This document shows positions 5,319 through 47,022 of a stretch of DNA of 48,715 nt, one piece after another. The position numbers and the translations under genes are program-made. The notes below the pieces were generated by a model, which worked only from the letters and a program-made list of their open reading frames with translations, searched no databases and had not been told where the DNA came from. How positions within the stretch are numbered: position 1 is the stretch's first letter; every line of letters begins with the position of its first letter. This stretch comes from a virus, in UHGV virus genome UHGV-0199265. One strand, given 5' to 3'.

Positions 5319-6590
5319 ATGAGTAAAGAATCATACCCAACGGGCGTTGAGAACCACGGAAAATCACTCCGCATATGGTTCATTTTTAAAGGTAAGCGTG
5401 TCAGGGAAAACCTCGGTGTCCCTGACACCGCTAAAAACAGGAAGGTGGCCGGGGAGCTGAGAACGTCAGTTTGTTTCGCTATCCGCATGGGGACCTTTGA
5501 CTATGCGGCCCAATTCCCCAACTCGCCAAATCTGAAAACCTTCGGCATCGGGAAGAAAGATATCACCGTAAAAGATCTGTCTGAAAAATGGCTTGAGCTT
5601 AAACGGATGGAGATCTGCGCTAATGCCATAAACAGGTATGAATCGGTGGTGAGAAGCATGCTGCCGAGGGTTGGCACGAATAAGCTGGTTTCGTCTGTGA
5701 CAAGAGAAGAGCTTCTCTATATCAGGAAGGATATGCTGGCGGGGGATAAAGGGTTGAGTGTGGTGACGGTAAACTACTACATGACCACGATCGCGGGTAT
5801 GTTTCAGTTTGCTGTTGATAATGGCTATGTGAGTGAAAACCCGTTTAACGGCATCAAGCCGCTAAAGAGGGCCAGGATAGAACCAGATCCGCTCACACGT
5901 GATGAATTCGTTCGCTTCATAGATGCCTGCAAGCATCAGCAAACGAAAAACCTGTGGTCAATTGCGGTATACACAGGATTACGTCACGGTGAGCTGGTCT
6001 CCCTCGCATGGGAAGACATAGATCTGAAAACTGGAACGATGACCATACGCCGGAATTATACGAAACTCGGTGATTTCACTCTACCAAAAACCGAAGCCGG
6101 TACCGACAGGGTCGTTCACCTGATCAAGCCAGCCATTGACGCTTTGAGGAACCAGGCGGAAATGACCAGGTTAGGCAAGCAGTATCAGGTTGAGGTACAA
6201 CTGCGGGAGTATGGCCGAACGGTCATTCACGACTGTACATTTGTGTTCAATCCTCAGTTGGTTAAAAAAAGTGGCAGCGTAGGTTACCTATACAAAGCCG
6301 ATTCAGTTGGTGACTCATGGGATGCGGCGCTTAAACGGTCAGGTTTAAGGCACCGCAAGGCGTATCAGTCGAGACACACTTACGCCTGCTGGTCGCTGTC
6401 TGCCGGGGCCAATCCGAGTTTCATTGCCAGCCAAATGGGACACTCCAGCGCCCAGATGGTTTTCAATGTTTACGGCGCCTGGATGGCCGACAGCAGCAGC
6501 GATCAGATTGCTATGTTGAACCAGAAATTATCGGACTTTGCCCCACCCATGCCCCAAGACGCCTGCCATGCGAAATCTTCCATCAATTGA
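5319..6590 (+). CDS. int: Tyrosine site-specific integrase (lambda Int family)
   Basis: 423 aa; N-terminal arm-binding-like region, C-terminal catalytic region with R...HxxR...Y pattern (RHGELVSLAWEDI, HTYACWS, VYGAW). Confidence 0.9.
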   Translation: MSKESYPTGVENHGKSLRIWFIFKGKRVRENLGVPDTAKNRKVAGELRTSVCFAIRMGTFDYAAQFPNSPNLKTFGIGKKDITVKDLSEKWLELKRMEICANAINRYESVVRSMLPRVGTNKLVSSVTREELLYIRKDMLAGDKGLSVVTVNYYMTTIAGMFQFAVDNGYVSENPFNGIKPLKRARIEPDPLTRDEFVRFIDACKHQQTKNLWSIAVYTGLRHGELVSLAWEDIDLKTGTMTIRRNYTKLGDFTLPKTEAGTDRVVHLIKPAIDALRNQAEMTRLGKQYQVEVQLREYGRTVIHDCTFVFNPQLVKKSGSVGYLYKADSVGDSWDAALKRSGLRHRKAYQSRHTYACWSLSAGANPSFIASQMGHSSAQMVFNVYGAWMADSSSDQIAMLNQKLSDFAPPMPQDACHAKSSIN

Positions 6591-6596
6591 CTGCAA

Positions 6597-6947
6597 CTAA
6601 ACAACCCCATTGTCCTGGCGCACATCGCAGATAGTAAACGTCACGACGCCGGCGACAGTGACATCATCCAGAGCCTCGCCTTCAATCGCTTCGCCGTCTT
6701 CGGTAATCAGAGACCTACCTCTCAACGTGGCAAGCTCCGTCCCGCCACCGTGCTGGATCAGAACCTGACTTCCCTGCCTTGGCTTCAGGGAGATATCCAG
6801 TACAACGTAACCACCAGAACGCTCGAAAACTAGCGTGTTTGGACCTACATTGCAGATCGAGTTGACAGACAGTCGCTGCTCGACGTAGTCGGACGCCGGT
6901 GAAGGAAAGCCCATTAGATCACCCTCCCCATGTTGGCCATCATCCAC
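6597..6947 (-). CDS. UmuD-like (S24 peptidase fold) protein lacking the Ser/Lys catalytic dyad
   Basis: GFPSPASDYVEQRL matches UmuD GFPSPAADYVEQRI and C-terminus VAGVVTFTI resembles VFGVVIHVV; GDSM position reads GGYV and the Lys position is Arg. Confidence 0.5.
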   Translation of the reverse strand: MDDGQHGEGDLMGFPSPASDYVEQRLSVNSICNVGPNTLVFERSGGYVVLDISLKPRQGSQVLIQHGGGTELATLRGRSLITEDGEAIEGEALDDVTVAGVVTFTICDVRQDNGVV

Positions 6948-7171: not shown

Positions 7172-7191
7172 TACTGTTTTTATATACAGTA
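7172..7191. promoter_or_regulatory. LexA (SOS) box overlapping the -10 of a minus-strand promoter
   Basis: TACTGTTTTTATATACAGTA = taCTG-N10-CAGta consensus; TTGATC -35 lies 17 nt upstream on the minus strand. Confidence 0.75.
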
Positions 7192-14731: not shown

Positions 14732-17700
14732 TTAGTAAGCGCCTTGCGCTTTACGACTTAATCCAAATGTCTGCTGCATCTGAGAGGATACCGGGCCGCC
14801 TCTTTCTATGTCGGTGATCAGCAAGTCCACAACTGCGCTACCGTCCTGCATGTAGCCATCGGCACTCTGTACAGTGGCACCGGTAGACTGGTTTATGACG
14901 TTCACCTGCACGCTGATCCCTCCTCCTGACTGCATATCCTTATTGCTGATGACCTTCCCGTTATCGCCGGGGATCATGTACTGCTTGCCGGTGCTGGCCT
15001 GGTAAATCTCTGGCTTCCCTTTCTCGCCGACCTGATACAGGCCTCCAGCTGATACCGGGCCGCCGTTGTAGCGAGCGCCGGCTATTGAAAGGGCCTGCGC
15101 CATGCCAACTGTTGAAGCTATTCCTGCCTGAGCGGGGGTAGCGTTAGCGCCAGCCGTGGCAAGGGAGGTCATTGCAGCAGCCGGAGCCATGGATGCGGCT
15201 ATTAGTTGCCCTTGCGCAATAGCCATTCCAGAAGCGGCGGTCATTCCAGCCTGCCCCATAATTACAGACTTCAACCACTCAACTCCCATCTGGACAAAGG
15301 AGTTGATGACGCTGTTAAGTACCGTCGAGCCTAGCGACCGCATAGCTTCGCTGACAGACATGCTGCCAGTGATTATGCCAGTGAGGGCGTTGGAGGCGTT
15401 TCCAGCAAATGAATCAAACGCCGCGGCAGCTACCTCATATCCTGCGTTTTGTTGCCTCCATATCTCCCACTGCGCCGCTATGCGCTGTTGTTCGTACTGA
15501 GTGTTAGCGGCATTCATCAGTTCAAGACCGCGCTGGGTTATCTGCCCCTTCTGCGTTTCGAACTGCTGGATGAGAGCCAACTCCTGAGCGTGCTGGTTAG
15601 CAAGCCGCTGAACTGGATCAATCTCTCCCTGAGCTTGTTGCTGAGGAGTTACTACTTGCCCAGCCCGAATTTTTGCCAGATTAACTTGGTGCTGTTGCTC
15701 AAGCTGCTCGCTAGCCTGATTGTATTGCTGCTGAGAGATGATCAGATTGCCTTGCGCATCTTTAGCATCCTTGAGGGTTTCAAGTTGCGATTTCTGTGCA
15801 TTGTAGTCTGCATTTTCTTTAAGCTCAGGAACGGCATTGCGCGCCTTAATTGCTGCCGCCGTATCCCAAACAGCAGCCGCGTAATTTCTAGCCTGCTGAA
15901 CCTGATCGGCTGATGCGGATTTACCGAGTGACTGCTCGGCCCTTAGCATCGCCTGCTCCCGGCTTAACTCCTGCGTTGAGCCAGCAGCGAGTTCTGATTG
16001 CTGGCGCAGATTTTCAAGTTTTTGGTTTACCGATTCCTGCTGGTTAGCAAGTTTCTTAGCCTCAGACGCCGCAGCATTATCTTCCTTCTTTTGATCCTTT
16101 CTTGCCTGAGTGTTTCTCTCTGTTGCAGCATAATTATCCTGAAGCCTTTTGATTGCTCGCTCATCTGTAACGCCTGCATCCTCAGCATCATAGGCCGCCT
16201 GCTGCCTGGCTTTTGCTTCCCCCTCCAATTTTGACAAGGCAAGTCGGCGCTCAGCCTGCTTAATTAACTTCTCGCCTTCTTTCCCGCCCCAGTTTATTTT
16301 CAGACTTTCTGAGTTGAAGGCTTTCAGGGCCTGCGTTGATTGGCCGAGTTTTTCAGCCAGGAATGCCTGGGTTCCACCGAGGAATGACGCTTGCTTTTCT
16401 GCTTCAGCGATAGCGATAGCGTTATCTCTGGCAGCCCTCATCTGATCAACAATGCCCTGATTAACTTGAATGTTAATTAGGTGTAATGCGTCTTCAGTTT
16501 GCTTAAGAGTGGCTGTCGCTCCATCCAGATCCCTGCGCTTTTTGGCCAACTCGTTTGCGGCATCCTTTGCCTTAATCACGAAACCATTATTTTGATCTTC
16601 GGTAACTCCGTATTGCCTTGCAAGCGTTGTATATTTCTCGTAATCGGATTGCAGACCTGAAATGGTATCTTTCAGATCGCTAATAGCTTCCTTTTGCGCC
16701 TCAATTGAGGTGACCGTATCAGCCCTAACGCCCTGAGCTTGAGCAAGATTCATGTCCTTGAGGCGCTTAATAACGTCAGGAACGGTGTCAGCAAAAGCTA
16801 TTGCCTCTTTTCTGGCCTCGGCCTGTCGCTGTGAATACAGATACCAGCCAGCGGCAACAATGGCTATTACGCCAATGGGTCCACCCAAAGGGGCGGTAAC
16901 CGAATTCACTACCTTCATTGTGTTTGCAAAAGTTATACCCGTAGCGGCCACTTTGGCTTGTGATGCCGCTAGTGCATTATTAGCCAATGCCGCTTCTGCG
17001 GATGTTGCAACGTAAATCCCTCTTAGTCGTATAACGTTCTCAAGCGCAAAGGCTTCAGCAGCAGAGCCTTTTGCTACGTTATACTCAGCAGTTGCCACAT
17101 TTAGAGCGGAAAGAGCAGCATCTTTATCTGCCGCTGCTTTTCTGGCTGTCACTGATGCTGCTGCGGCTTCCTGTTGTGCCGATTGCCTTGTCGCAACTAT
17201 TCCCTGAATGGTTGCTTTAACTCTTGAGGCTTGAGCGGCTGTTGCCATTGCTAACGCGCCAGCAAACCTACCGCCCATTATTGCAGCAGCGCCAATTAAG
17301 GCTGTCCCCAGCGTCTCAAGGTTTTCGCTTATTGTAATAACAGAGTCTCGGAACCCTGCTGCGAATGATTTAACCGTCGAGTTTTCGCCAAAGAACTTCG
17401 TTACGTTGTTACCGGCCACCTGCAATCCCTTGGCGATTGAGACGGTGGTGTTGGCAAATTCTTTGCCGATTGCATCCCCTTGTGACAGAAGCCCCTTAAC
17501 TACAACGTCTGTTGTCAGTTGCCCTTGAGCGGCCATAGCCCTTAACTGACCAATAGAAACACCCATCGAATCAGCCAGAGCGACCATGAGGCGGCTGCCT
17601 TGCTCTGACACTGAGTTAAACTCTTCGCCGCGCAGAACGCCGGAAGCTATACCCTGTGATAGCTGAATGATTGCGTTCTCAGCTTCCTGAGCAGTTGCGC

Positions 17701-18178
17701 CGGATACCGCAAATCCCTGGTTGATAATGGTGGTAAGGCGGGTTAAATCTTCTGCGCTGGTGTTGTATGTTCTGGTTCCGCGCTCAAGCCGGGCGTAAAG
17801 AGTCGCCGTGCCGTTCAGGGATGACTGGGTTGCTTGTGAAACATCAAAGATCCGCTGCATAACTTCGGCCTGCGTCTCTCCAGTACGAACCGAGTTAGCG
17901 ACTTTGTTATTCAGTTCAGTCCAGGCATCGGCATAACTCGCAACCTGTTGCACAGAAAGCGCGGCCAGCAAGCCTTTAGCAACGCCAGAAAGGCTGGACA
18001 TTGTTCGTTCCATCGATCCAATAGAGCGCTCAGTGCGGTTAACGCTGGCTTCAAGGCGGCCCATGCTCCCATTAAGACCGTTCAGTGCCGCATCAACTTC
18101 TCTTCGCGCTGCCAGTAAACGCGAAGTATCCATGTCGACTTCGTAGATAACGCTGCCAGCATCAAACGTTCCAGCCAT
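14732..18178 (-). CDS. Tail tape measure protein
   Basis: 1148 aa, Ala/Gln-rich coiled-coil, lambda-H-like N-terminus, position between chaperone and distal tail genes. Confidence 0.9.
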   Translation of the reverse strand: MAGTFDAGSVIYEVDMDTSRLLAARREVDAALNGLNGSMGRLEASVNRTERSIGSMERTMSSLSGVAKGLLAALSVQQVASYADAWTELNNKVANSVRTGETQAEVMQRIFDVSQATQSSLNGTATLYARLERGTRTYNTSAEDLTRLTTIINQGFAVSGATAQEAENAIIQLSQGIASGVLRGEEFNSVSEQGSRLMVALADSMGVSIGQLRAMAAQGQLTTDVVVKGLLSQGDAIGKEFANTTVSIAKGLQVAGNNVTKFFGENSTVKSFAAGFRDSVITISENLETLGTALIGAAAIMGGRFAGALAMATAAQASRVKATIQGIVATRQSAQQEAAAASVTARKAAADKDAALSALNVATAEYNVAKGSAAEAFALENVIRLRGIYVATSAEAALANNALAASQAKVAATGITFANTMKVVNSVTAPLGGPIGVIAIVAAGWYLYSQRQAEARKEAIAFADTVPDVIKRLKDMNLAQAQGVRADTVTSIEAQKEAISDLKDTISGLQSDYEKYTTLARQYGVTEDQNNGFVIKAKDAANELAKKRRDLDGATATLKQTEDALHLINIQVNQGIVDQMRAARDNAIAIAEAEKQASFLGGTQAFLAEKLGQSTQALKAFNSESLKINWGGKEGEKLIKQAERRLALSKLEGEAKARQQAAYDAEDAGVTDERAIKRLQDNYAATERNTQARKDQKKEDNAAASEAKKLANQQESVNQKLENLRQQSELAAGSTQELSREQAMLRAEQSLGKSASADQVQQARNYAAAVWDTAAAIKARNAVPELKENADYNAQKSQLETLKDAKDAQGNLIISQQQYNQASEQLEQQHQVNLAKIRAGQVVTPQQQAQGEIDPVQRLANQHAQELALIQQFETQKGQITQRGLELMNAANTQYEQQRIAAQWEIWRQQNAGYEVAAAAFDSFAGNASNALTGIITGSMSVSEAMRSLGSTVLNSVINSFVQMGVEWLKSVIMGQAGMTAASGMAIAQGQLIAASMAPAAAMTSLATAGANATPAQAGIASTVGMAQALSIAGARYNGGPVSAGGLYQVGEKGKPEIYQASTGKQYMIPGDNGKVISNKDMQSGGGISVQVNVINQSTGATVQSADGYMQDGSAVVDLLITDIERGGPVSSQMQQTFGLSRKAQGAY

Positions 18179-18197
18179 TTACTTTTCTCCGGGCAAT

Positions 18198-18223
18198 AAA
18201 AAACCCCGCCGGAGCGAGGTTGG
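18198..18223 (-). terminator. Hairpin + U-run just upstream of tape-measure RBS (CCUCGC-UCCG-GCGGGG-UUUUUU)
   Basis: stem with one G-U, T-run then GGAG RBS and ATG of the tape-measure gene; paralogous to 14704-14730. Confidence 0.5.
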
Positions 18224-18268
18224 TGACTACCAGAATGCAAAATTACATTCTGATTTAATTTCAATGGG

Positions 18269-19024
18269 TTATGCCACATCAGCACCGTTAATCAGATGGC
18301 GAAGTGCCTGAACCCCATCGGCGTTGTAGCGAAACGCCTCAACCTGCTTATCTGAGTGTCTCGACTTATCCAGAAAGAACTTGCCGTACTGCTCAGTTTT
18401 CAGGTTGTGTTTATTGGCCACGCGACCGATCTTGTTCGCAGTGCAACCGAGCTGCGCTGCCACTTCACCCGCCGTTGAGTAATGCTCTTCAATCGCAGGC
18501 AGCGGCACAACTTCGTGACCGAGTAGTGGATTAACAAGGGTGGCCACGATCACCTGGTTAGCCGATTCACCAAGCCGCGGGAACATTGACATCAGCTCGC
18601 GGGCCGATGCGATGTTTTTCTCCAGCGCCTGAGCTTTGAGTTGTTCAGCTTTGGCAAGCCGGTATTCAGTAAGCCCTGAGGTGCTTTTGGTCGGCACCTG
18701 GATAGCCTGCATGTCTTCCAGCTTATCAACCAAAGAGCGGCGAACGGCCTTAGACTCGCGTGCGGCCACACGCAGTGCCTGCTTGACCGTCATTTCGATT
18801 ACGACCTGATCGGCGCCGCCTTTAGACTTGTCCATGGGGGTTACAAAAGTTTTGTAACCCTCCCCCTCAAGCTCATCACGAATGCGATCGATGAATACGT
18901 TATTACGTACCGGCTTCTCTCCGCATTGCTTACGCGCCTGATTGACCATTTCAAGCAGCGACTGGCTGTCAATGGTTTTATCAGTGACAATTGAACCTAC
19001 ATTTGCTACATTCTTCTTAGTCAT
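18269..19024 (-). CDS. Antirepressor-like protein (C-terminal KilAC/ANT-like region)
   Basis: 251 aa; C-terminal segment AGEVAAQLGCTANKIGRVANKHNLKTEQYGKFFLDKS resembles phage antirepressor C-terminal domains; sits in the immI-like insertion. Confidence 0.4.
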   Translation of the reverse strand: MTKKNVANVGSIVTDKTIDSQSLLEMVNQARKQCGEKPVRNNVFIDRIRDELEGEGYKTFVTPMDKSKGGADQVVIEMTVKQALRVAARESKAVRRSLVDKLEDMQAIQVPTKSTSGLTEYRLAKAEQLKAQALEKNIASARELMSMFPRLGESANQVIVATLVNPLLGHEVVPLPAIEEHYSTAGEVAAQLGCTANKIGRVANKHNLKTEQYGKFFLDKSRHSDKQVEAFRYNADGVQALRHLINGADVA

Positions 19025-19057
19025 ATACGTTCCTATACGTTGTCAGACTTCAGTAGA

Positions 19058-19088
19058 CCGCCAGCAGCCACTGGCGGTTTTTCTTTTT
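19058..19088 (+). terminator. Orphan plus-strand intrinsic terminator (CCGCCAG-cagcca-CTGGCGG-TTTTTCTTTTT)
   Basis: perfect 7-bp stem followed by T-run on + strand only; no + strand CDS upstream. Confidence 0.5.
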
Positions 19089-19107
19089 GCGCCGTCCAAT
19101 GCGCCTG

Positions 19108-19740
19108 TCAGTGAAGCTCCTTTCTTAATCTTGGTAGCACCCGCGACCAGTTGTCGTCGTTTTGTGGTTCATATGCAATATGCTCAGACGCCTTTGCTAT
19201 AGCCTTTCTCGCTTCTTCAAACGTCCAGCGAAACTCATTACCAAAGTCATAAAACTTACCTGCATACTCTGATTTGATTGTTCGCATTGCTGGGTATAAA
19301 TCTCTTGCAAAGTTTTGCATCCGATTGGTTACATCCCACATCCAAGCGAGTCGACATAGCTCATCATCGGTGAACTGCTTCGCAATCGGCGAATGCGCCA
19401 CTTCCCGATCCAGAATATCCAACACCCAGCGGCGGAACTCTTTGGCGACCGGAGTGCGGGCGAACATTGCTATAAGATGGGCGCCGCGCAAAGAGAAGAC
19501 GCGAACCTTCATTCTGCGGGTAGAGCCATTTATTCCATTGGTCACTGATTCAATGACCATTGTCATTCCCTGAGAGAACTCATCTTCGTACTGAGCGAAG
19601 AGGTTAGAAATTGACTTGGTGCTTTTGTAACCTAGAGCTTTCGCAATATCTGCAGATGTCAGCCAGACACCAGTGACATTTTCTACCGGATTGAGCGTTA
19701 CACCGTGGAAGTTGAAATCTGATTTAGCTACAATGTTCAT
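19108..19740 (-). CDS. ant: Antirepressor Ant (BRO-N domain)
   Basis: BRO-N-like N-terminus MNIVAKSDFNFHGVTL...VWLTSADIAKALGY...RVFSLRGAHLIA; AAGGAA RBS 9 nt before ATG at 19740 (a longer 19821 start with GAGGAG RBS is also possible). Confidence 0.7.
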   Translation of the reverse strand: MNIVAKSDFNFHGVTLNPVENVTGVWLTSADIAKALGYKSTKSISNLFAQYEDEFSQGMTMVIESVTNGINGSTRRMKVRVFSLRGAHLIAMFARTPVAKEFRRWVLDILDREVAHSPIAKQFTDDELCRLAWMWDVTNRMQNFARDLYPAMRTIKSEYAGKFYDFGNEFRWTFEEARKAIAKASEHIAYEPQNDDNWSRVLPRLRKELH

Positions 19741-19812
19741 GTCGATATTTCCTTCGCGGTTATTTTCGATAGAAGCCCCAAAGGTTGCCGCCAATGGGGC
19801 TTCGCTGTTTTT
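19741..19812 (+). ncRNA. Candidate sar-like antisense RNA (~70 nt) covering the ant RBS and the arc-ant spacer
   Basis: TACAAT -10 at 19729-19734 on + strand; perfect 9-bp hairpin GAAGCCCCA/TGGGGCTTC at 19772-19803 followed by T5; mirrors P22 sar arrangement. Confidence 0.45.
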
Positions 19813-19981
19813 ACTGACCATTCATGCGCTCCTCACGCAGGCTTTTTGCCAAACGCTGCACAATTGCAGAGTTAATCGATATCCCATCCATTTCAGCCAT
19901 ACGGCGGATCTCTTCCTTCATTCCTTCTGGCAAACGCAATTGGAAGCTAGAGCTTTTTCTTTCTGTATATAAAGTATCCAT
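19811..19981 (-). CDS. arc: Arc-like ribbon-helix-helix repressor
   Basis: FQLRLPEGMKEEIRRMAEMDGISINSAIVQRL matches Arc/MetJ RHH pattern; 56 aa from ATG with GAGGG RBS; immediately upstream of ant. Confidence 0.7.
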   Translation of the reverse strand: MDTLYTERKSSSFQLRLPEGMKEEIRRMAEMDGISINSAIVQRLAKSLREERMNGQ

Positions 19982-19995
19982 ATCAACCCTCATCT

Positions 19996-20016
19996 ATCAT
20001 GTCACCGTGACATGAT
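19996..20016. promoter_or_regulatory. 21-bp perfect palindromic operator (ATCATGTCAC-c-GTGACATGAT) in the arc/mnt divergent region, plus further GTGAC(A) half-sites up to ~20054
   Basis: perfect dyad just upstream of the arc start; additional imperfect inverted repeat TCACTGTGAC...GTCAATGTGA at 20018-20054. Confidence 0.6.
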
Positions 20017-20080
20017 ATCACTGTGACTCAATTTACGGATAATGTCAATGTGATAGCATCAAGAAAATTTTGAGGTGCTT

Positions 20081-20440
20081 ATGTCAGAAAAACCAGTCCG
20101 CGAATACGATAAATTCATGCTCCGCTTCCCTGATGGTATGCGTGATGCCATAGCTGAGAGAGCCAAGCGTAATGGCCGCTCCATGAACTCTGAGATAGTG
20201 CAGATACTCCAGGACACGCTAGAGGGTGGCTTTTCCCTTCAGATGGATACCGAGTTTGGTAAGGTTTACAACGATCTTATCTCTACAGAAGTAAAAACAT
20301 CTGAAGATTTTGATAAAAACAATGAAAGAATAGACTGGTTGATAGATCAGCTTGTCTGGAAAATCGATACTGACGCGGCAAAACTACGTGAGCTTATGAA
20401 TTTACGTAAAATAGCTAACGAATCTAAAAAACCCACCTGA
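20081..20440 (+). CDS. mnt: Mnt-like ribbon-helix-helix repressor (Arc-type N-terminus plus C-terminal extension)
   Basis: FMLRFPDGMRDAIAERAKRNGRSMNSEIVQIL RHH motif; divergent from arc-ant; RBS tgaggtgcttATG. Confidence 0.65.
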   Translation: MSEKPVREYDKFMLRFPDGMRDAIAERAKRNGRSMNSEIVQILQDTLEGGFSLQMDTEFGKVYNDLISTEVKTSEDFDKNNERIDWLIDQLVWKIDTDAAKLRELMNLRKIANESKKPT

Positions 20441-20451
20441 TGGTGGGTTTT
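20426..20451. terminator. Bidirectional terminator between convergent mnt-like and secreted-protein genes
   Basis: AAAAAA-ACCCACC-tgat-GGTGGGT-TTTT; the mnt-like gene stop codon lies in the loop. Confidence 0.6.
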
Positions 20452-20456
20452 AACGT

Positions 20457-21224
20457 TCATTCATAGTTATGATCTATCTCTGATGGACCACAGCCATAAA
20501 ATTTATCACCAGCCTGAATGACAAATTTGTGTCGAGGTTCACTTGGTACAAATCTAGCCATCATCGATCCACCATTGAAGGTAAAGGAATATTCCCTTCC
20601 ATCCCATCGTGGATTCTTACCCATCATTACACTGCCAGCGATAATCATTGCAGGGTAACGGCCAGTAATCATTGTAACATCCTCCCACACTAGGCAGTTT
20701 GTGGTAAAGGCGTGCTTTTCTTTCATAAAAAATGACTTTGCTTTTGCTCCAGAGAGACTCTCAACCATCCTCATTTCATCTTCTGATTTTTTTTGTAGTG
20801 CCGATGCCTTATCTATTTCGCATTTAGCCCACTGCTCCGTGGTTTTCTTTATTCGGTCAGATACAGCAAAGTTAGATTTGTCCTGGCTGGCGGCAAATAC
20901 CTTTGTTTTATCATCGACGAAAATCATACCATCTTTCTTTTCAGTCAGTGGTGGGCTTACTACATAAGAGCCGTCTGGTCTATATACTGTAAAAGATTTT
21001 CCGTCGAATTTCACATTTGCACTGCCTTTAGTGAGAAGAGTTGGAGGTGAGGAAAAATCCCCAACCGCATACTCACAAACAAGCTTTTCATTAGCCACAG
21101 CCACGCCTGAGGCCATCAAAAGACTAAGCGCAATAAAACCCCTCATATCCCTATCCCCGTTGGTTTGTTTTCGACAGATTAGCAGGGATATGAGGGAGTA
21201 AAAAGACCACCGTGGTTGGCTCAT
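20457..21224 (-). CDS. Secreted / membrane-anchored protein of unknown function (AT-rich moron)
   Basis: 255-aa ORF; ATGA coupling at 21221-21224 supports this start; internal Met at 21146 gives a classical signal peptide MRGFIALSLLMASGVAVA; much lower GC than surroundings. Confidence 0.5.
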   Translation of the reverse strand: MSQPRWSFYSLISLLICRKQTNGDRDMRGFIALSLLMASGVAVANEKLVCEYAVGDFSSPPTLLTKGSANVKFDGKSFTVYRPDGSYVVSPPLTEKKDGMIFVDDKTKVFAASQDKSNFAVSDRIKKTTEQWAKCEIDKASALQKKSEDEMRMVESLSGAKAKSFFMKEKHAFTTNCLVWEDVTMITGRYPAMIIAGSVMMGKNPRWDGREYSFTFNGGSMMARFVPSEPRHKFVIQAGDKFYGCGPSEIDHNYE

Positions 21225-21481
21225 TTCTTCTTCTCTTCACGTTTGCGTCGTCGCTCTTCCCGCAACTCCTCTCGGCGTAAATCATCAAACACCTTTACGA
21301 TCGCTTTCATCATCATGAAATTGACGAAGTGGTGATTAACGCAGCCGTGAATGCGTAACTGCTCGGTGAACTCTTCAGCCGATCGCAGCGCCTCCATCAT
21401 GTTCTTCTCGCCTTTCATGAACTCCGAGAAGTCGCGCCCCGCTCTGGAGGCGCATTCAACGATTCGGTTATTCATGGTCAC
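21221..21481 (-). CDS. Hypothetical protein (86 aa) with Lys/Arg/Glu-rich C-terminal tail
   Basis: translationally coupled (ATGA) on both sides. Confidence 0.4.
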   Translation of the reverse strand: MTMNNRIVECASRAGRDFSEFMKGEKNMMEALRSAEEFTEQLRIHGCVNHHFVNFMMMKAIVKVFDDLRREELREERRRKREEKKK

Positions 21482-22233
21482 GCCGCCGCATACAGCAACT
21501 TCATTTGTCCCTTAACGGGGAACGCAGCCATGCAGCGGGCTTCGAAGTCCTTCTGGTCAATGCTGCAACTGGCAATGTTGGTAACGGCGATCAGTTGCTG
21601 CTCGACCTTCTCCAGTGCATCAGGCTTAAGATGTTGGTGAATCTTCTCCTTGCTGTCCCCGGCGGCTTGTTTGGCTGCCTGATAGACATAATCAGGAAGT
21701 GCTACACCGTACACCCAGCGAGAGGTGATCTGCCCGAACAGAGCCGGGCAACCGCCGACATGACCAAAGTAAGGAAGGCCGGACATTTTCGACAGTGCTT
21801 GATAGAACGGGTCTTTAAAGCGCTTCTCCCAGGACGTTGGTTGCTGGCACACCATCAGGCCGACAATCTGATCCTCGGTGAGCTGGAATTTTTTACTCAG
21901 CAGAAGATTTTTAATGTGTCGGTCACAGGCGCGGGCGAATTTTACTGACAACCAGCGGGCGAATTCCACCGCCAACTCCGGATGAAGCCAGGTCCCGCCG
22001 TTTCGCCCTTTCTCCACTCTGACTAAAAGGGGAGAAAAATCCTCTTTTACGCCAGAGCTAGCAATTCCAAGCTCCTCAGCCAGTTCGGCGATATAAGTTT
22101 TTGTCGCCTCAGTCTTTAGCCAGTCCTTTGGAAGCTTGCCGTGATGCTTTGCAGCAACTGTGGCATTGAACCAGCAATCTGCTGTAAAAGGGAATGAACG
22201 GTCATCGTAATTCATAGGGATGATATTAGACAT
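21478..22233 (-). CDS. KilA-N domain protein
   Basis: N-terminus FTADCWFNATVAAKHHGKLPKDWLKTEATKTYIAELAEELG is KilA-N-like; 251 aa. Confidence 0.55.
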   Translation of the reverse strand: MSNIIPMNYDDRSFPFTADCWFNATVAAKHHGKLPKDWLKTEATKTYIAELAEELGIASSGVKEDFSPLLVRVEKGRNGGTWLHPELAVEFARWLSVKFARACDRHIKNLLLSKKFQLTEDQIVGLMVCQQPTSWEKRFKDPFYQALSKMSGLPYFGHVGGCPALFGQITSRWVYGVALPDYVYQAAKQAAGDSKEKIHQHLKPDALEKVEQQLIAVTNIASCSIDQKDFEARCMAAFPVKGQMKLLYAAA

Positions 22234-22376
22234 ATCGGTAATTACCTTTTAGTGATGAACCTTGTCTCACAGGAATCCGGCCCACAGAAAGGCACCGACA
22301 GCCAGCCGGTATCCTCAAGGGTCATCCTGAAAGGTTCTGTGTGAAATGCGCGTGAGATGCGCGGTGAAATTTGGGT

Positions 22377-22404
22377 ATAAAAAAGCCCCGGACTATACCG
22401 AGGC
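22377..22404 (-). terminator. Intrinsic terminator 4 nt after the tail-chaperone stop (GCCUCGG-uauagu-CCGGGGC-UUUUUU)
   Basis: 7-bp stem with one G-U, U6 tail; separates the late tail genes from the inserted cargo module. Confidence 0.55.
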
Positions 22405-22408
22405 TGGC

Positions 22409-23086
22409 TTATTGGTTAGCTTTGGCCTGCTTCCGTTTGCGTCTTGCAAAGTACGCATCGGCTGCATCGTCATACTCTTCCCTGGTATACCCTTTCTGAT
22501 CCGGGTATTTGGCGATGAGCATTAGGCTGAATTCGGTCATCGTCAGATTTTCAGCTTCCTCTCTGCTGATCCCGAAGTGGTTGCGTGCAGCGATAACGTA
22601 ATCGGCAGCTCTGAACTCACTGGTTTTTTCATTTGTCTCATGGCGCTGAAGTTTGCGTACTTTGGCCTTTCCGATAATGCCGTGCATCATCAGACTTTGT
22701 GCAAGGATGACCATATCCTGCGGATTCATGACGCCCTTATGCCACACAAACGCCCTTCTTTTGGTTTTGCCGGGCTTCATCCAGCCAACCAGATCACCTA
22801 TGTCATCATTGCAGCAAGCGGTGAGGACCGTATGGGCGGCCAGTAGAGATTTCTTATCAAGATGTAAAGCAGAAAGGTGTTTAGCCAGCCATTCAGGCAC
22901 TCTGCCGTACGCTTCGACAACCCTCTGAATGAGAGGTGTTATTTCATCGTTGCAAAGGTCATAGAACGTCTGAACTATTTCTGCTGGCTCGCCAATGCGC
23001 GACATAGCCATGAATGATGGCCGGAAAAAATAATCCCGGTCCCCGACGGTTACCAGGCATTCTCCCAGCTCTTTTAGCGGAACCAT
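22409..23086 (-). CDS. Tail assembly chaperone (G/GT-like position)
   Basis: ATG at 23086 with GGAGG RBS (the longer track ORF overlaps the major-tail gene); between major tail and tape measure; no frameshift seen in this single 225-aa ORF. Confidence 0.5.
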   Translation of the reverse strand: MVPLKELGECLVTVGDRDYFFRPSFMAMSRIGEPAEIVQTFYDLCNDEITPLIQRVVEAYGRVPEWLAKHLSALHLDKKSLLAAHTVLTACCNDDIGDLVGWMKPGKTKRRAFVWHKGVMNPQDMVILAQSLMMHGIIGKAKVRKLQRHETNEKTSEFRAADYVIAARNHFGISREEAENLTMTEFSLMLIAKYPDQKGYTREEYDDAADAYFARRKRKQAKANQ

Positions 23087-34443: not shown

Positions 34444-35175
34444 TCAGTCCTTAATGAACTCTTCCGTGTGAATGCCGATTTCACCAGTAAGCAGATGAGC
34501 ACTGGTTGCGTCGATGTTCACTGATGTATGAGGGTTGGCGTTTTCGTTAAGCCATTTGATTACCGGCTTCACGACGTCTTCGAAGGAGGAGCTGCGAGCC
34601 TTATTAACATCGGGAACCTGGCACTTGCCAAGGCATGGGCCTTTATCGGCAAAACAGTTGACGCAGGAGTGATCGTGGATTTTCTTAGGGACGCTAAAGG
34701 TCTCATGAAAACCATGACCGTTTTGGTACCAGCGCCAACAATCGCGATATTCATAATCGACCGCCTCGTCATGAAACTGCCAAAGCAGATCAGGATTGCC
34801 AATGAGCTCATGGCCGATTTTAGGCTGATAGCCTTCCCCAATGGCCTGCTTGATATATTCAATCATTGCTTCGCGTGAGGGTGGCTTAGTCTGCTCTTCC
34901 TGAGTTCCGTCAGTTTCATCATCATCTTCACACACCGGGAAGCAACGCACACTGTCAACGAGGTGGTCACGAAAGATACGGGTTTCCAGCGAATCGGGTG
35001 CTGTAAACAACTCAATATTTACTCCGGAACCGAGGTTAATTTTCGGTTTATCTTTCGAGTACCCCTCAAACAACTGGCTTTCGACCAGAGTGCGGGCATT
35101 GATAATGCCGGAAATATTGCTGGAGGGCTGAGACAACTGCAGAAGCTGAACTGTCCAATACTTAATAAGTTTCAT
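34444..35175 (-). CDS. Hypothetical protein (243 aa), Cys-rich C-terminal half; moron between lysis and packaging modules
   Basis: lower GC; bidirectional terminator upstream (35291-35320); hairpin GAGCCAC/GTGGCTC just after stop (34411-34432). Confidence 0.5.
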   Translation of the reverse strand: MKLIKYWTVQLLQLSQPSSNISGIINARTLVESQLFEGYSKDKPKINLGSGVNIELFTAPDSLETRIFRDHLVDSVRCFPVCEDDDETDGTQEEQTKPPSREAMIEYIKQAIGEGYQPKIGHELIGNPDLLWQFHDEAVDYEYRDCWRWYQNGHGFHETFSVPKKIHDHSCVNCFADKGPCLGKCQVPDVNKARSSSFEDVVKPVIKWLNENANPHTSVNIDATSAHLLTGEIGIHTEEFIKD

Positions 35176-46300: not shown

Positions 46301-46311
46301 ACTATTTGAAA

Positions 46312-47022
46312 ATGGAAAAGAAAAAGACACTGACATCGGCTCAGATCGCTGACGCAGAAAGGCTGAAAGCCCTCTATGAAGCCAAGAAAAAAGAGCTTGG
46401 GATCACACAGCAATCAATAGCTGACATGCTAGACATATCTCAGGGTGGCGTTGGGCATTACCTGAATGGCAGGAATGCCCTTAATGCTGCCGTGGCTGCT
46501 GTTTTTGCCAGAGCCCTCCAGGTGGATGTCTCTGATTTTAGCCCCAGCCTTGCGAAAGAAATATCTGCAATGAGTGCTGCCGCTACATCGAATGCCAAGT
46601 ATGTAGGCCAGTACGCCCCAGGCATTAAATACCCTGTATTAAGCAAGATTCAGGCTGGGAATTGGTCGGAAGCGTGCGAGCCGTATGCACTTAAAGATAT
46701 CGATCTATGGCTCGAATCAGACGCTCACATCCAGGGGGAAGCGTTCTGGTTGTTGGTCGAGGGGGAATCCATGACTGCCCCGGTCGGGCTCAGCATACCT
46801 GAGGGTACATATGTTCTTTTTGATACCGGAAGGGAGCCGGTCAACGGAAGCCTCGTTATTGCAAAACTCTCGGAATCAAACGAGGCGACATTTAAAAAAC
46901 TGATCATTGATGGTGACCAGAAGTACCTGAAGGGCTTAAACCCTCAATGGCCATTGGTTCCCATCAACGGAAACTGTCGAATCATTGGTGTGGCCGTAGA
47001 AACTAAGTTAAGGCTTGTGTGA
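46312..47022 (+). CDS. cI: CI repressor (lambda cI-like, HTH + S24 autopeptidase domain)
   Basis: MEKKKTLTSAQIADAERLKALYEAKKKELGITQQSIAD...FWLLVEGESMTAP...TFKKLI parallels lambda CI throughout. Confidence 0.9.
   Translation: MEKKKTLTSAQIADAERLKALYEAKKKELGITQQSIADMLDISQGGVGHYLNGRNALNAAVAAVFARALQVDVSDFSPSLAKEISAMSAAATSNAKYVGQYAPGIKYPVLSKIQAGNWSEACEPYALKDIDLWLESDAHIQGEAFWLLVEGESMTAPVGLSIPEGTYVLFDTGREPVNGSLVIAKLSESNEATFKKLIIDGDQKYLKGLNPQWPLVPINGNCRIIGVAVETKLRLV

Follow-up and report, generated by a model that had tools for sequence, protein, structure and literature searches.

A P22 immI-type antirepressor module with a sar-like RNA, and a KilA-N cassette with a structured leader RNA, in the tail-module hot spot of a Klebsiella lambdoid siphovirus

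A close described counterpart of the locus considered here is the immI region of phage P22, in which the antirepressor Ant is controlled by Mnt (PMC7380047). In P22-like phages such a region belongs to the "ant moron", a high-flux stretch of the late operon that is traversed by late transcription (Villafane et al. 2008, PMC2629481). In the P22 sequence, the Pant hexamers (TTGACA, 17 nt, TATATT) are followed by the O_mnt palindrome, whose centre lies 44 nt from the first base of the −35 element, and arc is separated from ant by a 68-nt spacer with the sar RNA on the opposite strand. The same order of arc, spacer with sar, and ant is found in the virus genome UHGV-0199265 (48,715 nt, hereafter the window, meaning the whole stretch of DNA that was analysed), where a 4.2-kb block of seven open reading frames (ORFs) fills the interval from the stop codon of a DUF6246 gene (22409) to the start of the tape-measure gene (18178). 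This block consists of two cassettes placed end to end, a KilA-N cassette of the late operon and a P22 immI-type switch. The reading developed below, which we hold to be likely, is that the second of these cargo units of a tail-module hot spot is a complete antirepressor switch of the immI type.

The window comes from a lambdoid temperate siphovirus, or prophage, of Klebsiella, with the late genes on the (−) strand and a tail module of the type of Salmonella phages ES18, Oslo and SPN3UB. The original prediction, made without database searches, had described a lambda-like phage with a cI/cro immunity region; CI (HTH_3 plus Peptidase_S24, 46306–47022, (+) strand), Cro, CII, an O-type replication protein and the Q antiterminator were indeed detected, together with an integrase, a lysis cassette of the holin/lysozyme/Rz1 type and the large terminase subunit. 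The elements of the switch are the following.

20081–20440, (+) strand: Mnt-like repressor, 119 amino acids (aa), likely ATG at 20081 behind GAGG in the ORF 20075–20440; PF03869 (5.7e-18)
19811–19981, (−) strand: Arc-like repressor, 56 aa, likely ATG at 19981 behind GAGGGT in the ORF 19811–19993; PF03869 (7e-12)
19108–19740, (−) strand: Ant, 210 aa, likely ATG at 19740 behind AAGGA in the ORF 19108–19821; Bro-N (PF02498, 7.6e-10) and P22_AR_C (PF10548, 5.3e-19); phrog_245
19982–20080, both strands: divergent control region
20048–20020, (−) strand: Pant-like promoter by sequence match, TTGACA (20048–20043), 17 nt, CACAGT (20025–20020)
20015–20043, (+) strand: Pmnt-like promoter, ATATCA (20015–20020), 17 nt, GATAAT (20038–20043), back to back with the Pant-like promoter and overlapping it
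19995–20017: perfect 23-bp palindrome TATCATGTCAC-C-GTGACATGATA at the O_mnt position
20012–20027 and 20044–20059: imperfect inverted repeat covering hexamers of both promoters
19729–19812, (+) strand: sar-like antisense RNA, body about 19742–19806; Rfam RF00262, 37.6 bits, E 4.3e-5
19729–19734, (+) strand: Psar-like −10 element TACAAT (TATACT in P22)

The Mnt-like gene diverges across a 99-bp spacer from the Arc-like gene, which heads the ant operon. Comparison with the P22 immI proteins, suggested as a check on the original prediction, gave 40% identity over 43 aa between the Arc-like protein and Arc (E 3e-10), 48% over 42 aa between the ribbon-helix-helix (RHH) domain of the Mnt-like protein and residues 2–43 of Mnt, and 41% over 80 aa (E 7e-17) between the C-terminal domain of Ant and residues 214–293 of P22 Ant. 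In the PDB, the Mnt-like protein matched AmrZ, Mnt (1mnt) and Arc. The predicted pair of divergent Arc-like and Mnt-like RHH repressors and the predicted BRO-N Ant are thus upheld by profile searches, and the ORFs on which they were based are present; only the likely true starts differ (19981, 20081 and 19740, and 21146 for the secreted protein considered below).

The geometry of the control region is conserved as well. The −35 element of the Pant-like promoter is identical to that of P22, and the palindrome, which has the same CACGGTG core, is centred 43 nt from its start, against 44 nt in P22. In other alleles TTGACA is retained and the palindrome at that position has another sequence, such as TTGGTTCTAGAACCAA in Oslo; variation of this kind at a fixed position is the expected look of distinct working immI specificities. 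Control of the antirepressor genes by LexA, in the style of Gifsy, 186 Tum or N15, was considered and rejected: the control regions of the block contain no CTGT-N8-ACAG box, and over the whole window such boxes occur at chance level (17 against 16.2). The only perfect LexA-type box, CTGTTTTTATATACAG at 7174–7189, lies ~230 bp upstream of a UmuD-like gene (6597–6947, (−) strand, phrog_3469) near the integrase end of the prophage, an SOS-regulated accessory gene unconnected with the ant module.

The original prediction, whose list of the module's contents held, had missed the sar-like RNA in the gap between arc and ant. This RNA is complementary to the ribosome-binding site and start codon of ant and to the arc-ant spacer, and it ends in a terminator hairpin with a T-run. 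Since its body (19742–19806) lies between the arc stop codon (19811) and an internal ATG, the start of Ant was moved to that ATG. When the region was aligned with those of P22, Oslo, SPN3UB and the Klebsiella prophage ST11-VIM1phi8.1, the ant start codon, the −10 element and the terminator hairpin lined up. Moreover, all 38 sar homologues found by nhmmer are antisense to the late operon, and the terminator stem keeps its 12 pairs over 27 distinct alleles, with compensatory changes at 5 of them.

Judged by its domains, Ant is a chimera: its N-terminal part matches Bro-N and not PF10547 (P22_AR_N), which is present in the Ant proteins of both P22 and Oslo. It shares only 50% identity with the allele of the nearest relative. 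Downstream of ant lies a second antirepressor-like gene, the 5′ end of which contains a promoter-like site directed towards ant.

18269–19024, (−) strand: second antirepressor-like protein, 251 aa; phrog_1726 "anti-repressor" (3.8e-89)
19019–19090, (+) strand: candidate second antisense RNA, ~70 nt, fold z = −3.35
18984–19012, (+) strand: promoter-like site of this RNA, GTGACA, 17 nt, TACATT, with TG, inside the 5′ end of the 251-aa gene

The prediction of a second antirepressor-like gene stands as far as its presence and PHROG name go, with weaker matches to the Ant families PHROG 130 and 63; domain backing was not obtained, as the protein had no relative in Pfam, NCBIfam or the PDB and no similarity to P22 Ant. 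Ant itself likewise had no relatives among solved structures. For the cargo proteins as a whole, NCBIfam gave only sub-threshold matches, confined to the two RHH proteins, and PADLOC gave only two weak partial matches, both to uncharacterised candidate models (PDC-S05 for Ant, E 0.0054; PDC-S22 for the KilA-N protein, 28 residues, E 3.7e-6). Directly after the ant stop codon there is a hairpin, CCGCCAG-N6-CTGGCGG (within the stem scanned at 19055–19080), followed on the (+) strand only by TTTTTCTTTTT (T5CT4) at 19081–19090. This hairpin and its T-run are invariant in 7 loci, regardless of the downstream gene, and in relatives the −10 (TAAATT, TATAGT) and −35 elements remain promoter-like though the encoded residues change. 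The candidate RNA would cover the ribosome-binding site and start codon of the second antirepressor-like gene and is offered here as a lead.

By analogy with P22, we infer the following sequence of binding events and the accompanying transcription pattern. In a lysogen, the Mnt-like repressor would be expressed from its own promoter, bind the palindrome over the Pant start and keep arc and ant silent. Upon infection or loss of Mnt, Pant would fire; Arc would then shut both promoters and the sar-like RNA would pair with the ant ribosome-binding site, so that Ant would be made in a short burst. Ant, and perhaps also the second Ant-like protein, would bind and inactivate a CI-type repressor belonging to this phage or to co-resident prophages; its role may be anti-immunity at infection or cross-talk with other prophages. 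The terminators flanking the block would insulate the tail genes from transcription started at Pant and Pmnt and would be passed late by the Q-modified polymerase. The KilA-N cassette, in turn, would be transcribed by the Q-antiterminated late polymerase reading through the upstream terminator, and the translation of its first gene would be gated by the leader RNA described below.

Several observations weigh against this scheme. The −10 element of the Pant-like promoter (CACAGT) is weak, the −35 element of Psar is poor, and the score of the sar match falls under the Rfam gathering score of 43. The Mnt-like protein lacks the Mnt tetramerisation domain, since PF11423 (Repressor_Mnt) found no match in its 119 aa while giving 1.6e-20 for the P22 Mnt control, and its C-terminal 70 aa are unrelated. 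Ant has BRO-N where P22 Ant has P22_AR_N, and BRO-N and KilA-N are generic DNA-binding modules that are often called "antirepressor" without evidence; the second Ant-like gene encodes no supporting domain at all. Finally, SOS induction does not depend on Ant, as CI carries an autocleavage domain of the S24 type; P22 ant mutants likewise remain inducible (PMC7380047).

The last of these points leads to an alternative that is possible, though on balance doubtful, namely, that Ant-type proteins act in trans on the repressors of other prophages, or are DNA-binding regulators or anti-defence factors, and provide no "second immunity system" for this phage. Apart from the autocleavage domain of CI, it draws on the documented trans-acting antirepressors of Salmonella prophages (PMC7380047), on the swapping of Ant alleles in the nearest relatives, where Arc and Mnt are 99–100% identical, on the tandem arrangement of two different Ant-like genes and on the DNA-binding folds of BRO-N and KilA-N. 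The C-terminal domain of Ant is, however, homologous to that of P22 Ant. P22 Ant inactivates its own repressor, C2, as well as heterologous lambdoid repressors, and therefore own and foreign targets are not mutually exclusive.

It is considerably less probable that the immI-like module is a decaying remnant, currently without function. The weak −10 elements could be read in this way, as could the in-frame upstream extension of the annotated Ant ORF, which overlaps sar, and degraded ant genes are known from the ant morons of HK620 and Scho1 (PMC2629481). Against this, all ORFs of the module are intact and have good ribosome-binding sites, the 23-bp palindrome has no mismatch, compensatory changes across alleles preserve the sar terminator stem, and the operator palindromes vary by allele at a fixed position, as working specificities would. 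Least credible of the explanations for the regulatory genes is that the two RHH proteins form a toxin-antitoxin or partition-type (ParG/CopG-like) pair unrelated to antirepressor control: the PHROG names of the best RHH families do include "partition protein ATPase", and there are weak HicB, CopG_antitoxin and FitA matches, but the P22 mnt record bears the same mislabel, the top Pfam family of both proteins is Arc (PF03869), with 40–48% identity to P22 Arc and Mnt, neither a toxin gene nor one for ParA lies next to them, and the arc-sar-ant order, the identical Pant −35 element and the palindrome at the O_mnt position are all as in P22.

A complete immI-type switch thus being the preferred reading, its setting in the tail operon can be described. 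The flanks of the block, the remaining genes and the terminators are as follows.

22409–23086/23185, (−) strand: DUF6246 gene, PF19759 (1.8e-80)
22377–22405, (−) strand: intrinsic terminator at the 5′ boundary, stem 22405–22384 with 8 pairs, then TTTTTT, adjoining the DUF6246 stop codon (22409–22411)
21478–22233, (−) strand: KilA-N plus P63C protein, 251 aa; PF04383 (8.4e-18), PF10546 (1.6e-11); phrog_1136
21221–21481, (−) strand: 86-aa protein with a Lys/Arg-rich C-terminal tail; phrog_875 (2.5e-51)
20457–21146, (−) strand: secreted protein, 229 aa from the likely ATG at 21146 (longest ORF, 255 aa, to 21224)
20430–20451, both strands: hairpin AACCCACC-TGAT-GGTGGGTT with T-runs on either strand, between the convergent Mnt-like and secreted-protein genes
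18196–18221, (−) strand: intrinsic terminator at the 3′ boundary, stem 18221–18202, then TTTTAT, before the tape-measure ribosome-binding site
14732–18178, late strand: tape-measure gene, 1148 aa

An accessory block at this junction, with the genes listed and a terminator at either end, had been predicted; the ORF, Pfam and PHROG searches bear out all the gene assignments, and a terminator scan recovered both boundary terminators (15 terminator-like sites in the region against 5.6 ± 2.5 in shuffled sequences). The hairpin and T-run after the DUF6246 gene are conserved among relatives and bound both the block and the leader cassette considered below. Within the block, the hairpin at 20430–20451, which also gave terminator-like partial Rfam matches (P9/sroH), is probably a bidirectional terminator, to judge from its T-runs. 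The GC content dips to 0.39–0.44 at 19600–21000, compared with about 0.50–0.58 in the flanking tail genes. Of the usual traits of a moron, terminators and low GC content are therefore present, whereas promoter-like sites, expected together with the terminator, are found in the immI half only.

At the same time, the claim that the block interrupts the canonical order of the tail genes was an overstatement. Among 80 IMG/VR loci with a DUF6246 homologue, 64 include the start of the tape-measure gene, and in these the gap between the two genes measures 557–5921 bp (median 3227, 50 distinct sizes) and is never empty, so that the uninterrupted chaperone-tape-measure junction that had been sought in relatives does not occur in this set. 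The predicted block is present, and the junction that it occupies is a standing hot spot. Where the gap is smallest, the whole cargo amounts to one or two genes for lipoproteins or secreted proteins, none of which has a counterpart in the window; two such cargoes with lipobox motifs (L057:10806-11192 and L082:10708-11769) are candidates for superinfection exclusion. Cargo mixes freely, as the contrast between the near-identical Arc and Mnt and the half-identical Ant of a relative illustrates, and content is wholly different in relatives whose DUF6246 and tape-measure proteins are 94–100% identical; not one gene is shared by every locus. Other cargo also occupies the junction in Klebsiella phages 2 LV-2017 and RAH1. 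On the evidence of these sequence comparisons, the tail module of ES18-type siphoviruses has a standing recombination hot spot at this junction, with the block as its accessory cargo.

This variability also bears on the suggestion, now very improbable, that the genes of the block are conserved tail-assembly components, for example a missing partner of a G/T-type chaperone. It could appeal to the junction never being empty in the 64 relatives and to DUF6246 being without a frameshift partner, for which the ES18 record speculates on a +1 frameshift. However, content differs completely between relatives with near-identical flanking proteins, the lipoprotein genes of the smallest gaps are not matched in the window, no gene is universal, and the domains in the block are regulatory; comparison with related phages thus shows variable cargo. 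The predicted naming of the DUF6246 gene as the tail chaperone fits its position, which is the only basis for the role, while a programmed frameshift partner was not found: at its 3′ end there is no G/GT-type frameshift extension, and the alternative frames close within a few codons. The ES18 record, for its part, offers the +1 frameshift as speculation only.

The KilA-N, 86-aa and secreted-type AT-rich proteins are all present as predicted (profile searches, GC scan). The three genes are tightly packed, the 86-aa ORF overlapping each neighbouring ORF by 4 nt. KilA-N homologues occupy the same place in 24 of the 80 related loci, and the 86-aa protein accompanies KilA-N in 23. In the scan for sigma-70 promoters, no site scored 9 of 12 or more ahead of any of these three genes, nor ahead of the second Ant-like gene, and the KilA-N cassette is therefore most likely transcribed by late read-through only. 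The secreted protein falls into a small family of enterobacteria that has neither a name nor a Pfam domain; it is probably periplasmic, given a signal-peptide-like N-terminus, MRGFIALSLLMASGVAVA, picked out by eye; its AlphaFold2 (AF2) model (pLDDT 85) comprises two small beta-barrels, with generic structural matches only.

Between the upstream terminator and the KilA-N gene lies a leader RNA, which is the part of the locus that may be new. Its copies in the window and two of those in known phages are given here.

22234–22384, (−) strand: leader RNA, ~150 nt, from the terminator T-run to the KilA-N start codon
35176–35294, (−) strand: second leader copy, between the Rz1-like gene and a 243-aa ORF
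L008:5487-5641 (P22): leader copy upstream of rha
L090:2488-2633 (BP-4795): leader copy upstream of ant

By nhmmer the leader was located in 54 places, including the one upstream of P22 rha, and by blastn in 328 phage records; it stands upstream of "ant" in Shiga-toxin (Stx) phages (in BP-4795, between R and ant), of Rha in P22-like phages and of KilA-N in Klebsiella phages. Copies preceding the Ant and Rha query genes run up to the start codon and end there. In P22, the match reaches ~5641, roughly 65 nt beyond the annotated start of rha (5576–6181), which suggests that this start was placed too far upstream. Tandem copies, each before a successive cargo gene, occur in L140 (803–954 and 2166–2320) and L232 (1051–1202 and 1976–2106) and fit a modular cassette of terminator, leader and gene. 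In the window, the second copy precedes the 243-aa ORF (34444–35175, (−) strand, phrog_16206, no Pfam domain), which is flanked by the Rz1-like gene and a putative phage metallopeptidase gene; given its leader, the ORF is probably another late-operon cassette.

The first RNAalifold consensus on a broad MAFFT alignment was poor (−9.7 kcal/mol), and the structure was taken from single-sequence folds and column statistics and then tested on a model-based alignment. The single-sequence folds share a common architecture of a small GCGC hairpin followed by a long irregular hairpin, with an outer helix in which ACCUUU pairs with the Shine-Dalgarno sequence AAAGGU. Additionally, the loop of the GCGC hairpin (UCUCAC) pairs with the distal 3′ internal loop (GUGAGA) as a pseudoknot, for which the covariants UCUCAC/GUGAGA, UCGCAC/GUGCGA, UCACAC/GUGUGA, UUCCCC/GGGGAA, CUCGCGU/ACGCGAG, CCGAAA/UUUCGG and CCGCAAU/AUUGCGG were found. 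A covariance model built from the nested helices only, with the pseudoknot helix left out, recovered 62 copies in 61 sources, the window copy at 22234–22384 scoring 156 bits. In the alignment of 54 distinct sequences, 85.7% of cells are paired, against 36–50% in slid controls, the covariation score is 0.34, against at most 0.105, and compensatory change occurs in 37 of the 44 pairs; in the pseudoknot helix, outside the model, 96.3% of cells pair and 5 of 6 pairs covary.

The window and P22 copies of the leader gave only terminator-like noise in Rfam 15 (E up to 10), and a keyword search of the literature found no description of it. A conserved small ORF in the leader was rejected as a candidate, being open in the window and closed after 4 codons in the Oslo-type copies. 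We rate as evenly balanced the proposal that the leader is a previously undescribed pseudoknotted cis-regulatory RNA which travels in terminator-leader-gene cassettes and, across hundreds of lambdoid phages, gates the translation of late-operon genes of the KilA-N, Ant and Rha types. It would do so by sequestering the Shine-Dalgarno sequence of the first gene of the cassette, and the covariation of the pseudoknot and of a second long-range helix suggests a switch that is read by some factor or condition.

If this is true, the presence of the leader before KilA-N, Ant and Rha genes, including the "ant" of Shiga-toxin phages, would provide a new handle on the control of accessory genes in late operons, and this by-product of the analysis may matter more than the immI block. 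As for the switch, the comparisons show the P22 immI circuit travelling in one piece, antisense RNA included, between unrelated virion modules, with examples in the late operons of podoviruses, the tail operons of siphoviruses and the nin region, while Ant domains and operator specificities are shuffled independently within it. Antirepressors of this sort could link induction among prophages that share a clinical Klebsiella strain.

Public phage genomes already contain, with partial annotation, an "ant moron" of the immI type at the ES18-type tail hot spot. The nearest records, ST11-VIM1phi8.1 and ST512-KPC3phi13.1 (MK448233, MK448235), cover 84% of 18000–22600 at 94.9% identity and have the same KilA-N, 86-aa, secreted, Mnt-like and Arc genes and the same sar; they differ in the Ant allele, in a second gene of the BRO-N type and in an extra VasI-like gene beside the tape-measure gene. 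There is no discussion of the module in the paper on these Klebsiella prophages. At the same junction, Oslo (vB_SosS_Oslo) has KilA, an Arc-like regulator, Arc, a P22-like Ant and one further gene, and SPN3UB has the set of Oslo plus several extra genes; both phages also have the leader, the sar element and the hairpin after ant, although the Ant of Oslo is of the full P22 type (P22_AR_N plus P22_AR_C). In the GenBank record of ES18, gp18, gp19 and gp20 at this junction, in the gp17-to-tape-measure interval and with terminators, are called a "possible moron", the cargo being unrelated (a DUF4041 protein). All three are phages of Salmonella, unlike the Klebsiella phage of the window. Away from this junction, E. 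coli phage PhiR5_1 has the same arc/mnt/ant type of module in its nin region, and Stx phages have it in their late region.

An accessory gene beside the tape-measure gene in the tail operon of a lambdoid siphovirus, expressed from the prophage, is reportedly represented by the gp15 moron of HK97 (attributed to Cumby et al. 2012); it is said to be a single superinfection-exclusion membrane protein, with no regulatory module. The "ant moron" is likewise a hypervariable accessory region of the late operon, one that often combines the immI set with unrelated genes, but it was described in podoviruses, between the ejection-protein and tailspike genes (PMC2629481), and not at the DUF6246/tape-measure junction of a siphovirus. 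With P22 immI itself, the window shares the divergent mnt and arc-ant units with RHH domains 40–48% identical, the sequence of the Pant −35 element, with a palindrome centred 43–44 nt downstream as for O_mnt, sar in the arc-ant spacer with its −10 element inside the 5′ end of ant, the homologous C-terminal domain of Ant, a primary repressor of the S24 type, and the placement of the module within a late operon of virion genes with a terminator after it. The original prediction of an immI-type module in the middle of the tail operon is borne out in its architecture, by homology, sar and promoter geometry; the location is not unusual, since P22 immI lies inside a virion-gene operon too. The window differs from P22 in having the module in an ES18-type siphovirus tail operon instead of the podovirus 16-to-9 interval, in the BRO-N N-terminus of Ant, in a 119-aa Mnt-like protein without PF11423, in other operator sequences, in a second Ant-like gene with its own candidate antisense RNA, and in the neighbouring cargo, which is the KilA-N cassette here and sieA/orf59a in P22.

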